Of a DNA stretch of 64,000 nucleotides, positions 59,244 through 64,000 are shown piece after piece. Positions within the stretch are counted from its first letter, which is position 1, and every line of letters starts with the position of its first letter. The notes beneath the pieces are model-generated. The model ran no database searches. It was not told where the DNA came from and worked only from the letters and a program-made list of their open reading frames with translations. The DNA is from Alphaproteobacteria bacterium (GTDB lineage: Bacteria > Pseudomonadota > Alphaproteobacteria > UBA828), in NCBI GenBank assembly GCA_965214705.1, contig OZ243972.1, positions 1,600,001 to 1,664,000 of the forward strand. Reading direction: 5' to 3'. Made by a program: the position numbers and the translations under genes.

Positions 59244-60065
59244 ATGCGAAAGCCTCTTGCGACGTTGTTCATTCTGGCCATCTCGATGAGCCTGGCGGCC
59301 TGCGCCGACAACGACCGGATCACCGTCCGGGAGCTCGGAGACCGGGCCGGGCTGTCGGCGCCGGTCGAGTCGGCGGCGGAACAGGCCCTGCGGGCAACGG
59401 GCATCGTCGAGCGAAGCGACTCACTGATTATGTCCACGCACTTTGTGGAAACCGACAACCCCGACATTCCGCCATCCCGGATCTGGACGGATTGCAGCGG
59501 AGACAGCTGCACGCTGACCGATTCCCTGTCCGGCGCATCCCATACGGTCAGCCTCACCGATCTCGAGATCATGGCCGACGCCTCCGAAGCCCTCGGCACC
59601 AGGCACGGCGTCACCCTGACATGGGACGAATCTCGCCACGATGGCGCCGACGCGACGGCGCTCGGCGCTTGGATGGATCACGGCGCGTTCCTGCTCCAGA
59701 CGAACATCGCGCGCACCGAGGAAGCCGACCTCGACATCCGCTCCGCGATAGTCGTAGGCAATGCGACGGACATGCCGCTCACCGGCAGCGCGACGTGGCT
59801 CGGCCTCATGGCCGGCACGCCGGTTGCCGGCGAGGCCCGCGGCAACCGGCTGATAGGGACTGCGGCCCTGAACTACGACATGGACGCCGGCGGCGGGCTT
59901 GATGTCGCCTTCAGCGCAATCACGGATGTCGACCGGAATCGGCCGCACACGACCGCGACGATCCTGTTCCCCGACGTGCCGCTCGTCCCGGGCGGGACGT
60001 TCGAGACCGGCCGCACCGGCGACCGCATCCACGGCGCATTGAACGAAGCCGCTACGCGGAGTTAG
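59244..60065 (+). CDS. Lipoprotein with a TbpB-like beta-barrel, probably truncated at the C-terminus by the adjacent element
   Basis: Lipobox LAAC; GSATWLGLMAG, LDVAFS and RIHGA, then an abrupt change in sequence at 60041. Confidence 0.65.
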   Translation: MRKPLATLFILAISMSLAACADNDRITVRELGDRAGLSAPVESAAEQALRATGIVERSDSLIMSTHFVETDNPDIPPSRIWTDCSGDSCTLTDSLSGASHTVSLTDLEIMADASEALGTRHGVTLTWDESRHDGADATALGAWMDHGAFLLQTNIARTEEADLDIRSAIVVGNATDMPLTGSATWLGLMAGTPVAGEARGNRLIGTAALNYDMDAGGGLDVAFSAITDVDRNRPHTTATILFPDVPLVPGGTFETGRTGDRIHGALNEAATRS

Positions 60066-60269
60066 CGGCGTAGAGTTCATTCATTTCCGAGGCGTCGCGG
60101 GTGCCGTTTGTTCTGTGCGTTCGCTTCCCGGTTGCGTCAGTGGCGCTCCGCCCGTCGGGTGGCGGATCCCCAGCAGCCTCCCGATCACCAGTGGTTAGTA
60201 TCGACCCCTGCGACGGACCGTCGCCGGATCGGTCCGGCGGCGCGCCGTCGCGATCCAGGGAGATCGATA

Positions 60270-61148
60270 ATGACCGGGACCGCGTGCGACACGAACACCG
60301 TCACCCCTCTTCGCCAGCGCATGGAGGAGCAGCTCCGCATCGCCAATCTGGCCGCGAGCACGTCCAAGGCCTACATCTGCGAGATCAAGAACCTGGCCAG
60401 GTACTACGACGCCTCGCCGGACGAGCTCGACGCCGAGCAGGTGCGCCAGTGGTACCTGGGGCGGATCGACAAGGGGCTCAGTCCGGGCACGACCAACGTC
60501 TCCTTCGCCGCGCTGAACTTCCTCTACATCGACACACTCGGCTGGCCTGACCATGTCGCCGGCCTGCGCTCCCGCAAGAAGCCCGGCAAGCTGCCGCGCT
60601 ACATGTCGGAGCAGGAGGTCGAGCACCTCATCCTTGCGACACCCGACCTCCGCCACCGTGCTGCCATTGTCACCGGCTATGGCGGCGGGCTCCGCATCTC
60701 CGAGACCTTGGCCATCAAGGTCGGCGACATCCTGTCGGAGAAGAAGCTGCTGCACATCCCCTCCGGCAAAGGCGGCACCGAGAGAATGGCACCGTTGCCG
60801 GACATCGTCATCCACTACTTGCGCGTCTACTACAGGAACATCTGGCCGCGTCCGACGAGCTGGCTCTTCTACGGCGTCTCGCTCGACAGGCCCATCGCAA
60901 CGGAGACCTTGCAGGCCGCCTTCAGGAGGGCGCGCGACATTGCCGAGCTCGACCGCAGCTACACCTTCCATTGCCTGCGCCATTCGGCGGCGACCCATCT
61001 CCTCGAGCGCGGCGGCGATATCGAGGTGATCCGGGACATGCTCGGCCATCGAAGCGCGAACACGACCCGTCACTACGCCCGCGTCACCGGCAAGATGTTC
61101 GAGGGCCTCGACCACCCGATCTCAGGCTTCGCAGCGTTGCGCAACTGA
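60270..61148 (+). CDS. Tyrosine recombinase (XerC/phage integrase family)
   Basis: GLRISE, GKGG, HCLRH, LGH and terminal HY catalytic residues are all present. Confidence 0.92.
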   Translation: MTGTACDTNTVTPLRQRMEEQLRIANLAASTSKAYICEIKNLARYYDASPDELDAEQVRQWYLGRIDKGLSPGTTNVSFAALNFLYIDTLGWPDHVAGLRSRKKPGKLPRYMSEQEVEHLILATPDLRHRAAIVTGYGGGLRISETLAIKVGDILSEKKLLHIPSGKGGTERMAPLPDIVIHYLRVYYRNIWPRPTSWLFYGVSLDRPIATETLQAAFRRARDIAELDRSYTFHCLRHSAATHLLERGGDIEVIRDMLGHRSANTTRHYARVTGKMFEGLDHPISGFAALRN

Positions 61149-61451
61149 CGGCGCGTGGAGGCCGAACGCGCGGGCGTGGCGGAGATCTTCCGCCGCGCCG
61201 GCGCCGCTTTCCGTGAGCGCCACAAAGGGCGCATCGACGCCGCCCGGCTCAAGGTCATGGGCGCCATCGAGGCGTGCCGCACCGCCGTGCTCGGCGGCCA
61301 CATGTACGCCTGCGAGGGCTGCGGGCGCGAGCATCCGCTCTTCAGATACCATGAGCACGGTGGCACCGAATCGATTCTGGCGGTTAGACAAGCTCGGAGA
61401 GAAGGCCAGCACCTTCTCTCCGAGCGGAATCGTCAACAACGGAGTGGACGG

Positions 61452-62648
61452 ATGTCGGATGGTCCAGACACGACCGCGCTGACAGGCGCAAGTAGTAGCA
61501 CGATTTATGTCGCGGTGGAGATCAGCCTCAAATCGTGGATCGTTGGCGTGCATTGCCCGGATGCCTCGGGTGGCAGCATCAGCATCCACACACTGGCTGC
61601 TGCCGACACGGCGGGACTGTTGGATCTCGTCGGGTCGGTGCGGGAACGGGTGGCGAGGGAGCTCGGCGCCCGTCCTCGGGTGATGCTGACCTACGAGGCG
61701 GGCTACGAGGGGTTCTGGCTTGCCCGCGATATCGAGCGCCGTGACGCGGAGATCGATATCTTCATGAACGATCCGGCGAGCCTGCGGGTGAACCGGCGCG
61801 CCAAGAAGAAAAAGACCGACCGTATCGACGCGAGGAGGATGGTTCGGGCTCTGAAGGCATGGGACCAAGGCGATTCGGAGGCCATGTCCTGGGTGCGCGT
61901 GCCCGATGTGGACCAGGAGGATGCCAAGCGCCTGCTGCGCGAGAGGGACACGCTGATCAGCGAGCGTACCCGCGTCAACAACCGGATCAAAGGGCTCTTG
62001 CAGTTGCACGGCATCTTCGATCTGGCGCCGCGCAAGCCGGACTTCCTCGAACGCCTCGCGACCGCGCGGACGGGCTATGGGGCGCCGTTGCCGCCGCGTG
62101 CGCGGGCAGAGATTGAGAGGGCGGTGGGGATGCTTCGCCTGGTTGAGGAGCATATCGAGATGATCGAGGCCGAGAAGAGGGCCCTGCTGAAGGCTGGCCG
62201 GAAAGCCCAGGACGCGACCAATCGTGACGGGACGGCGATGATCGCGGCGCTTACGCGCATCCATGGCATCGGCCTCAATGACGCCACACTGCTGGCTGGC
62301 GAGGTGTTCTATCGGGACTTCCGCAATCGCCGGGAGTTGGGCAGCTGGGCCGGGTTGACGTCGGTGCCGTGGGCGAGCGGAGATGTCGACCACGATCTTG
62401 GCATCAGCAAGGCCGGCCCCTCGCATGTCAGGAAGCACATGATCCAGATGGCTTGGCGCTGGCTGAAGCTGCAACCGGAAAGCGCGATCACGAAGTGGTT
62501 CCACGCCTACGTCGCCAGGGATGCCGGTGGCGGGAGGGACCGGCGAGCGAGGAAGCGGGCGATCGTGGGGGTCGCGCGCAAGCTGCTGATCGCGCTGTGG
62601 CGCTATGCCACCCAAGGACTGGTGCCTGAGGGCGCCATCGTCTCCTGA
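61452..62648 (+). CDS. IS110-family DEDD recombinase/transposase
   Basis: YVAVEIS, YEAG, KTDRIDA, GIG, AGLT...SG, GISKAG and VARKL. Confidence 0.92.
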   Translation: MSDGPDTTALTGASSSTIYVAVEISLKSWIVGVHCPDASGGSISIHTLAAADTAGLLDLVGSVRERVARELGARPRVMLTYEAGYEGFWLARDIERRDAEIDIFMNDPASLRVNRRAKKKKTDRIDARRMVRALKAWDQGDSEAMSWVRVPDVDQEDAKRLLRERDTLISERTRVNNRIKGLLQLHGIFDLAPRKPDFLERLATARTGYGAPLPPRARAEIERAVGMLRLVEEHIEMIEAEKRALLKAGRKAQDATNRDGTAMIAALTRIHGIGLNDATLLAGEVFYRDFRNRRELGSWAGLTSVPWASGDVDHDLGISKAGPSHVRKHMIQMAWRWLKLQPESAITKWFHAYVARDAGGGRDRRARKRAIVGVARKLLIALWRYATQGLVPEGAIVS

Positions 62649-62984
62649 GGGCACCGGCCGAACGAACGGGAAAATACAGGAGGTTCCGACGTGGTCGGAC
62701 GCGGCCGCGGAGGATGCCGGGCAAGGCGTGTGACCGGGCAAGAGTTGGGTCGCCGCTTGGCACCGTTCTACAGATGGGTCCCGCCTCCCGGAACGTCACC
62801 ACCGCTTGGATGCGGTATTGGGGTCACGGAGCCGGCAAGCGCCGGAGTTCCGAACCGGATAAGAGCTGAGCAGCGTGGCGGATCGCTGCGTGGAAACGAC
62901 GTTCTGCCTGGACATCGGCCGCGGATTCGAGTGGAGAGATTGCGAATGCCATTGACGTAGATGAAGCCGGGCCTTGCGGAGAGA
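62649..62984 (+). ncRNA. Candidate bridge/seekRNA region of the IS1111-type element
   Basis: Non-coding 3' end with short matches to both strands of the reconstructed target and of the circle junction (see findings). Exact RNA ends are unknown. Confidence 0.6.
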
Positions 62985-64000
62985 GCTCATAAGAACTCCT
63001 GCCGCAACCGCCACTGCCCCACCTGCCAGGGTCTCGCCGCCAACCTCTGGAGCGAGGAGCGCGCCGGGGACATCCTGCCGGTGCCCTACTTCCATGTGGT
63101 CTTCACCCTGCCCAAGGAGGTTGCCGCCATTGCCTTCTGCAACCGCAGGGTGGTGTTCGACATCCTCTTCCGGGCCGTCGCCGAGACCCTGCGCACCATC
63201 GCCGCCGATCCCCGCCACGGCGGCATGCGCATCGGCGGCACCGCGGTCCTCCATACCTGGGATCAGAAGCTCCGCTTCCACCCGCACCTGCACGTGGTCG
63301 TGCCCAACGCGGGCTTCGACGTAGACAGTGGCGAGTGGAAGACGGGGAGCACCACCTTCCTCGCCCCCGTCAAGGTCCTCGGCAGCCTGTTCCGCCGCCT
63401 CTTCCTCGAGGAGCTCGCCCGCGCCCACGGCCGGGGGGACCTGGAGTTCCACGGCACCCTCGCCCACCTCGCCAATCCCGGCGAGTTCCACGCCACGCTT
63501 GCCGCCGCCCGGGCCAGGGACTGGGTGGTCTACGCCAAGCGGCCCTTCCGCGGGCCTGAGCAGGTCTTCCGGTACCTCTCGCACTACACGCACAGGATCG
63601 CCATCTCCGACAGCCGCATCGTCTCCTTCGACGGCGAGACGGTCTCCTTCCGCCACCGAAAGCCCAAGGCGCCGGGGCAGAGAAAGCCGCGCTACGGCAT
63701 CGCCACCGTGAGCGCCGACGAGTTCATCCGCCGCTTCCTGAGGCACGTCCTGCCGGACGGCATGCACCGCATTCGCTACTTCGGCATCCTCGCCAACGGC
63801 TGCCGCGCCAGCACGCTGGAGAGAGCACGCCAGGCTCTCGGCGCCCTCGGCTGCGCCGCCCCCGAGGGAAGCGTGGACGGCGCTCGGGCCGAGCCCGACG
63901 AAGAGCCCGAGATCGGCACCGCGCCCGTGGCCTGCCCCCACTGCGGCGGCGTCATGCGCCTCGTCCGCGAAATCCGCCGCCGCCATGAGCCCCGCTCGAC

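Follow-up and report, generated by a model that had tools for sequence, protein, structure and literature searches.

What brings one insertion sequence to the same few codons of another, copy after copy and in the same orientation? The question is raised by a 64,000-nucleotide stretch of DNA from an Alphaproteobacteria bacterium of the UBA828 lineage (assembly GCA_965214705.1, contig OZ243972.1, positions 1,600,001 to 1,664,000; the window), near the end of which an IS91-family transposase gene is split by a complete 1650-bp insertion sequence of the IS110 family and IS1111 type (61344-62993, forward strand). This element is intact and recently active, and we consider it highly probable that it is RNA-guided, its own RNA steering insertion into one site of the IS91 transposase. 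An original prediction, made from the letters of the window, had proposed such an element with readable guides and a promoter formed at the junction of a circle.

A search of the element's own genome (7.9 Mb, 3 contigs) with the 1650-bp sequence returned 14 full-length matches, 13 of them identical and one with a single difference. All 14 terminate at the same bases, which makes the predicted boundaries 61344 and 62993 exact, save for one shared A. Further copies are 97, 96, 92 and 86% identical, three more are split by another element and a few are fragments. Whether other copies lie at unrelated sequences, a point raised with the original prediction, was checked: 19 of the 22 copies or remnants occupy the same IS91 position in the same orientation, while the others lie at two istB sites and one other site. 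The empty site is also present, and in quantity, since in 78 IS91 copies, 66 of them full length, the left flank runs directly into the right flank as CCGCTCTTC/AACTCCTGCC (the slash marks the point of insertion, here and below); this is the empty target that had been read as CCGCTCTTC/AACTCC. The insertion point lies between codons P-L-F and N-S-C of a zinc-binding motif, so that the Zn_Tnp_IS91 domain of the host transposase is broken between profile positions 48 and 52, ahead of the Y2_Tnp domain. There is no target duplication, and a single A is all that is common to the two junctions (TTC/AGATACC and CATAAG/AACTCC). A two-nucleotide AG core duplicated at both junctions, as in relatives, was considered for the window element and rejected, the empty sites being without AG. 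Two DNA-like public sequencing runs of other studies, searched as assembled contigs, hold both the identical element and the empty site. Contigs from RNA libraries among the public runs carry relatives of 90-95% identity, comprising gene and non-coding region, which does not in itself demonstrate transcription.

The recombinase encoded by the element belongs to the IS110 family. It matches PF01548 (DEDD_Tnp_IS110, E 6e-8) and PF02371 (Transposase_20, E 8e-12), both over the Pfam cutoffs, and scores 174.4 bits against the NCBIfam model NF033542, 'IS110 family RNA-guided transposase', for which the cutoff is 140. No PDB chain matched by sequence up to an E of 1. Foldseek was used to compare the PDB with an AlphaFold model based on 14 relatives (predicted local distance difference test score 78.2, predicted template modelling score 0.49), and the top 10 entries were all of ISCro4 (9t56) or IS621 (8wt6, 8wt9), with E values of 1.5e-10 to 2.5e-9 over around 385 aligned columns; the template modelling scores to the ISCro4/IS621 structures are 0.52/0.62-0.64. 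In the alignment of relatives YEAG, KTDRIDA and ASG are conserved, Asp123, Asp126, Ser309 and Gly310 are invariant and Glu82 is nearly so. The first catalytic aspartate, expected at about residues 20-26, appears from the sequence alignment to be a glutamate in YVA(V/I)E(I/V)S across the clade. Towards the C terminus, 8 of the 11 relatives covering the motif have G(L/I/M)TPTPWASG and the other 3 keep its proline, where the window element, with GLTSVPWASG, has a serine. The length of the window protein falls at the upper end of the clade (about 392-398 amino acids). Among plasmids, a tblastn search with the recombinase gave a best match of 46% identity, and the named elements ISSso6, IS5708 and IS1618 were around 25% identical. 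ISAzs32 and ISCARN28 were considered as clade members and rejected, because the N-terminal sequences given for them in the Durrant supplementary tables differ.

The ends of the element have the geometry of the IS1111 family, in which a 7-nucleotide extension and an inverted repeat at the left are matched by an inverted repeat and a 3-nucleotide extension at the right (PMC11187229). An 8-bp inverted repeat, complementary at 7 of 8 positions, lies inside the extensions AGATACC and AAG, which are fixed by the 78 empty sites and the 14 full copies. Repeat lengths of 7-17 bp have been given for the family (PMC11208160), with 11-13 bp usual (PMC11187229). Non-coding DNA amounts to 345 nucleotides downstream of the gene (62649-62993) versus 108 upstream. 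The Pfam and NCBIfam matches, the fold, the end geometry and the long downstream region all support the IS110/IS1111-type assignment that had been made from the sequence.

The downstream region is predicted to encode a conserved RNA structure of two domains, one binding the target and one the donor, and this structure is supported by compensatory change. A consensus fold obtained with RNAalifold on 16 aligned sequences of the region contains 36 pairs in 6 helices. Standard pairs occupy 95.1% of the alignment cells, against 30-51% when the 3' partners are slid by 1-3 columns, and 13 pairs are changed on both sides, against 1-5 when slid. None of 500 shuffles attained the observed percentage paired, the compensatory counts or the covariation score. 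The fold bears out the arrangement anticipated for the guides, with the two target guides facing each other across an internal loop and the donor guides placed either side of a second hairpin. Scanned against Rfam up to an E of 1, the stretch 61000-63400 gave no family match, only two unrelated sub-threshold matches, and folds of the single sequence (z of -1.2 and -1.5) are uninformative in such G+C-rich DNA.

The four guide segments had been proposed from short matches, and each string is found where it was reported: GAGTTG at 62742-62747, CCGTTCTACA at 62763-62772, GGTAT at 62814-62818 and ATAAGAG at 62859-62865. GAGTTG is indeed complementary to the target, though it is too short, as the right target guide extends to GGCAAGAGTT, which is complementary at 9 of 10 positions to AACTCCTGCC. 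CCGTTCTACA contains the left target guide as TTCTAC (62766-71), followed by an invariant AGA; its CCG belongs instead to the stem of helix B, which is invariant in all 16 aligned sequences. The right guide (62737-46) precedes the left guide (62766-73), as in the IS1111 group. From the guides the ideal site would be TTCTAC/AACTCTTGCC, which would encode Y-N-S-C. This agrees with the preferred target suggested earlier (the Y-N-S codons, TCTAC/AACTC), and a contig of one public run holds an IS91 relative with CTCTAC/AACTCC at the empty site.

It is the relatives that give these segments their significance. They have 37-55% protein identity, with one at 88%, and were drawn from 49 genomes of the same order and a public genome collection. 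Their downstream regions align as a conserved scaffold with two hypervariable blocks, the first being the reverse complement of the right flank and the second having the sense of the left flank. Fourteen guide types were scored at each separate insertion site, own and control pairings alike being allowed offsets from -1 to +1; left out of the counts were L027, L030, L035, L036 and L039, which have truncated or unalignable ends or non-coding region, the fragment L023, and the more distant or partial L031, L032, L037, L040 and L043. Against its own flank the right guide matches on average 7.4 of 10 positions, with at least 7 at 16 of 21 sites, while mismatched pairings average 3.9 and reach 7 in 3 of 273. 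For the left guide the mean is 4.4 of 6, with at least 4 at 16 of 18 sites, as against 1.7, and 11 of 234, in mismatched pairings. The target guides thus covary with the flanks of related elements, as the original prediction had proposed to check.

The donor guides were examined against the element's own ends. In all 22 rows of the alignment the left donor guide, directly 3' of helix E, agrees with the right end, the three states ATAAGAG, ATAAAAG and ATATAAG accompanying the right ends CATAAG, CATAAA and CATATA (each with AG); the reading of ATAAGAG as a match to the donor junction is supported. The complementarity of GGTAT to donor ATACC is likewise present, and relatives with the left end AGATCCT carry GGGAT(T/C) at this position. 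GGTAT(T) is nevertheless the least secure of the four assignments, for reasons given below.

Natural retargeting is seen in close relatives of the element. The 86% copy (C3:483684) keeps the scaffold but carries the guides AATAGGCGTT and TTCCAT, and it lies inside an IS21-family istB gene at profile position 218. Two intact istB paralogues read GTCCAC/AACGCCTA(T/C)CG and fit the right guide of this copy at 9 of 10 positions, the intact paralogue site being GTCCAC/AACGCCTATC. The relative with 88% protein identity, L021, has the guide ACCACCAGTT and the flank AACTGGTGG, and is inserted within a DDE_Tnp_1 transposase gene. The 97% copy has kept the guides of the window element and lies antisense in the Walker-A codons of another istB, where its right half fits at 10 of 10 positions and its left flank at 2 of 6. 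This agrees with the 'half-match' off-target insertion described for IS621 (bioRxiv 10.64898/2026.08.31.748434). In all, the genome holds 33 copies of the RNA scaffold with 10 different guide pairs. In the clade, 6 of the 14 guide types are aimed at genes belonging to other insertion sequences, either inside the gene or at its end: the IS91 zinc finger, IS21 IstB, an IS4-like DDE domain, an rve integrase core, an IS3-like rve_3 gene (at its end) and transposase genes of other IS110 elements.

Three other explanations of this pattern have to be weighed. Taken alone, the four exact matches are not significant, since matches at least as long to all four references, in any order, turn up in 188 of 2000 dinucleotide shuffles of the non-coding region, and the caution about chance that accompanied their discovery was well placed. 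That the matches are indeed chance and the element site-specific for unrelated reasons is nonetheless scarcely credible, given the position-specific covariation with flanks and ends in relatives and the location of the guides in loops of a structure supported by compensatory changes. It is also very improbable that the protein, alone or with DNA structure, recognises the site while the RNA-like structure serves as transposase regulation or as a terminator. The RNA of this element is a prediction from sequence, and its left guide TTCTAC fits the IS91 left flank at only 4 of 6 positions (5 with one G-U), as recognition by the protein would allow; yet across 14 guide types two hypervariable blocks of an otherwise conserved scaffold vary in step with the flanks, close relatives in which these blocks have changed (86-88% DNA or protein identity) lie at new sites that match them, and RNA guidance of the family has been shown experimentally (PMC11187229, PMC11208160). 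Somewhat less remote, though still unlikely, is that the copies are mainly passengers, a single ancient insertion having multiplied with an IS91::element composite, in trans or by gene conversion. All IS91-borne copies have identical junctions, the single-nucleotide differences of IS91 are combined in a mosaic fashion, suggesting that copies have recombined with one another, and some 78 intact IS91 copies could act in trans. Copying by the unit, however, predicts equal divergence of element and IS91, and this is not what is found: the identical 1650-bp element is present in at least 12 IS91 haplotypes that also occur empty, among them one unit with a right arm 98% identical and another around 85% identical to the IS91 of the window. 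An element with no differences inside flanks that differ by 0-15% must therefore have arrived after the IS91 copies diverged, and copies at two istB sites and one other site are not accounted for by passage with IS91. Gene conversion or mobilisation in trans may account for some copies.

Several observations weigh against guidance by the element's RNA as set out here. Besides the imperfect left guide and the poor left half at the 97% copy, guide type GGTTGCTCGC scores 3, 5 and 5 of 10 to the right flank in its 3 copies, the right guide of L042 reaches 5 of 10, and that of one element reaches 4 at offsets from -1 to +1, though by eye an offset of +2 gives a fit of 8 of 10; from one relative to another, the right guide shifts its register to the element end by 1-2 nucleotides. 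GGTAT lies partly within a predicted stem, the 3' strand of hairpin D, and its sole covarying position is confounded with a compensatory pair of that hairpin (A-U in this subclade, C-G in others), which is why it is the least secure guide. The junction string TTGCGG-N17-TACCAT expected on circularisation is reproduced by abutting the ends, but its hexamers agree with the consensus at only 7 of 12 positions. Outside the subclade, relatives have TTGAC(A/T) 21-23 nucleotides from the right end in 10 of 10 examined, together with weaker -10 candidates. A promoter and terminator scan found no sigma-70-like promoter or intrinsic terminator in the linear element, and no circle-type joint is listed among the public runs, which were searched as assembled contigs. 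The recombinase, at 398 amino acids, is longer than the 330-350 quoted for IS1111 transposases (PMC11187229), a typical range and not a strict criterion.

On balance RNA guidance accounts best for the locus, and a mechanism can be proposed. The DEDD/serine recombinase would be guided by RNA encoded in the downstream region, whose donor-binding domain, with GGTATT and ATAAGAG flanking a hairpin, would recognise the abutted ends CATAAG/AGATACC. Insertion would then take place between TTC and AAC of the zinc-finger codons P-L-F/N-S-C, in one orientation and with no duplication of the target, the crossover probably being confined to the single A common to donor and target. From published work on ISEc11 and IS621 we infer expression of the RNA, excision as a circle with an active promoter at the joined ends, RNA processing and binding by the recombinase, and serine-mediated strand exchange. 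The features on which this rests are collected in the table, along with neighbouring elements.

Table. Features of the insertion sequence, its predicted RNA, its target and associated mobile elements. Positions are those of the window unless a locus or contig is named.
Feature	Position	Strand	Evidence or remark
IS1111-type insertion sequence, 1650 bp	61344..62993	+	14 full-length copies with identical ends; 78 uninterrupted empty sites
Recombinase gene, 398 amino acids (stop included), RuvC-like DEDD and Transposase_20 domains	61452..62648	+	Pfam, NCBIfam, fold
Left terminal extension AGATACC, 7 nucleotides	61344..61350	+	Begins with AG, the core that the guides share; relatives read AGAT(A/C)C(C/T)
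Left subterminal inverted repeat ATGAGCAC	61351..61358	+	7/8 complementary to 62983-62990
Right subterminal inverted repeat GAGCTCAT with 3-nucleotide extension AAG	62983..62993	+	
TACCAT, candidate -10 formed only on joining of the ends	61347..61352	+	Function inferred
TTGCGG, candidate outward -35	62974..62979	+	Putative function; in relatives TTGAC(A/T) stands equally far from the end
Predicted bridge/seekRNA: 5' hairpin, target-binding domain 62720-62789, donor-binding domain 62790-62905	62692..62905	+	Consensus fold; ends approximate
Helix A	62720-35 with 62777-89		Encloses internal loop
Target internal loop	62736-47 (5' side), 62765-76 (3' side)		Sides parted by hairpin B
Small hairpin B	62748-50 with 62762-64		
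Long-range helix C	62790-97 with 62898-905		Encloses hairpin D, helix E and the single-stranded stretches either side of E
Hairpin D	62801-05 with 62812-16		
Helix E	62827-29 with 62855-57		
Right target guide GGCAAGAGTT	62737..62746	+	5' side of target loop; pairs with top strand AACTCCTGCC; 9/10 to IS91 site
Left target guide TTCTAC with core AG	62766..62773	+	3' side of target loop; same sense as left flank CTCTTC; hypervariable block tracking left flanks
Right donor guide GGTATT	62814..62819	+	Complementary to left-end bases 2-7 GATACC (one G-U); weakest of the four assignments
Left donor guide ATAAGAG	62859..62865	+	Identical to right end ATAAG plus AG of the joined ends; 22/22 rows, three states
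Left target half CCGCTCTTC	61335..61343	+	Codons P-L-F of the IS91-family zinc-binding domain
Right target half AACTCCTGCC	62994..63003	+	Codons N-S-C
Host IS91-family unit, 2668 bp without insert	60039..64000	+	Extends beyond the window end; tyrosine-recombinase open reading frame and split Zn_Tnp_IS91/Y2_Tnp transposase
Group II intron in IS91	L062:210-4330 (own genome C1:791409-795529); C3:1609607-1615425; left flank of copy at C1:4025031		
IS66-family element interrupting IS1111-type copies	L063 (own genome C2:520096-522847); C3:687936-690687; C3:1715128-1717879		

The host of the element, the IS91-family unit, is with around 97 copies the dominant repeat of the genome, and 19 of these copies are interrupted by the element. 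Upstream of the Y2 transposase the unit carries a tyrosine-recombinase open reading frame (60108-61148) with Phage_integrase and SAM_4 domains. In the window the IS91 start codon, the left end of the element and the recombinase form a single open frame of 497 amino acids (61155-62648), which could arise by chance in G+C-rich DNA or serve to exploit the expression signals of the host insertion sequence. Two otherwise empty IS91 sites, at C1:3005637 (-) and C2:15365 (-), have small lesions exactly at the insertion point: one reads CTCTTC-AG-AACTCC, with 2 nucleotides added that equal the element core AG, and in the other CTCTTC is followed by TCCTGCC, AAC having been lost. These lesions may be scars of imprecise excision. 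The same IS91 gene also harbours a group II intron, in antisense orientation and 10 bp upstream of the element site, its 5' end GTGCG immediately following GAAGAGCGGA; the intron contains two reverse-transcriptase open reading frames, one with a maturase domain. As the two insertion points are within 10 bp, two different RNA-guided mobile elements home side by side. The left flank at C1:4025031, considered as a second target, was rejected, since it is IS91 with the group II intron 10 bp upstream.

Some copies of the element have been rearranged. At C1:1873053-1874866 (L009) the final 165 bases of a full copy (element positions 1486-1650) are repeated immediately after it, and only then does the IS91 flank resume. 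In another genome (L042:2677-3305) the RNA region is duplicated, and there is an insertion inside the recombinase gene of another copy. Three copies are each interrupted by an IS66-family element (TnpA/TnpB/DDE_Tnp_IS66, ends GTAAGCGGTA...), with an 8-bp duplication in each case. The right junction of the 86% copy (C3:485333, L058) is one A short of the intact istB paralogues, reading CATAAG/ACGCC and not CATAAG/AACGCC, so that precise excision could not restore istB in frame; this copy and istB together form an open frame of 748 amino acids. The guide type GAGAACTGGC with ACCTTC (3 copies in the own genome) twice adjoins another IS110-family transposase gene, and in the type GGTTGCTCGC with GGCAAG, also in the own genome, the right guide does not fit the right flank.

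Amongst characterised elements the closest parallel is with ISEc11, ISKpn4, ISPst6 and ISPa11, IS1111 elements with seekRNAs (PMC11187229). These have the same subterminal inverted repeats with 7- and 3-nucleotide extensions, the same lack of target duplication, a long non-coding region downstream and a guide complementary to the top strand 5' of the one for the bottom strand. The exchange of loop segments by which ISEc11 and ISXne4 were retargeted is paralleled by the natural retargeting seen here. The clade of the window element also shares the C-terminal motif GL-P----SG of this group, though the window element itself has serine for the proline. It differs from the group in the 8-bp inverted repeat (7/8), as against 11-13 bp, and in its target, the coding sequence of the transposase of another insertion sequence, and its RNA and circle are predicted ones (PMC11187229). 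Identity to named enterobacterial IS110-family elements is around 25% at the protein level. By most of the features compared the element belongs to the IS1111 group, the deviations being the longer recombinase, the short inverted repeat and the serine. In IS1111-family seekRNAs each guide pair flanks a hairpin (PMC11187229), and both this architecture and the guide order agree with those RNAs and with the LTG/RTG/LDG/RDG scheme (PMC11208160). IS621 and ISCro4 (PMC11208160, PMC11208158; PDB 8wt6, 9t56) share the fold and a bispecific RNA with target and donor loops whose guides overlap a short core. In IS621, however, the RNA is encoded in the left end, the guide order is reversed and the core is CT (PMC11208160, PMC11208158), whereas the core here is (A)G, and donor and IS91 target have only one A in common.

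A limited literature search found no report of an IS110/IS1111 element targeting IS91 or other insertion sequences. Two elements of the IS1111 family, IS4321 and IS5075, are said, in work by Partridge and Hall from 2003 that PMC11208160 and PMC13626964 cite, to target the ends of Tn21. They are likewise of IS1111 type with a specific target in another mobile element, and an IS1111-type element aimed at such a target is thus not new in principle; the window element differs in hitting conserved transposase codons and disrupting the gene. It is a clear addition to a known RNA-guided system and leaves the known mechanism unchanged.

A wider suggestion, which we put forward only tentatively and consider rather doubtful, is that the clade consists of specialised hyper-parasites of other insertion sequences, with guides repeatedly evolving towards conserved motifs of foreign transposition genes. 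If this were true, such targets would be multi-copy landing sites resistant to mutation, about a fifth of the host insertion-sequence population would be disabled by insertions, and a co-oriented, in-frame insertion could borrow the transcription and translation signals of its host, expressing recombinase and guide RNA without a circle. The locus already presents one mobile element policing or exploiting another, with 19 of around 97 IS91 copies lost at a codon motif that is hard for the host element to change. For the RNA-guided recombinases it adds a well-resolved natural example, the main value of which is a natural reprogramming series: 33 scaffold copies with 10 guide pairs in one genome, several with identifiable targets, a long (10-nucleotide) right-target guide and a visible tolerance of mismatches and half-matches.

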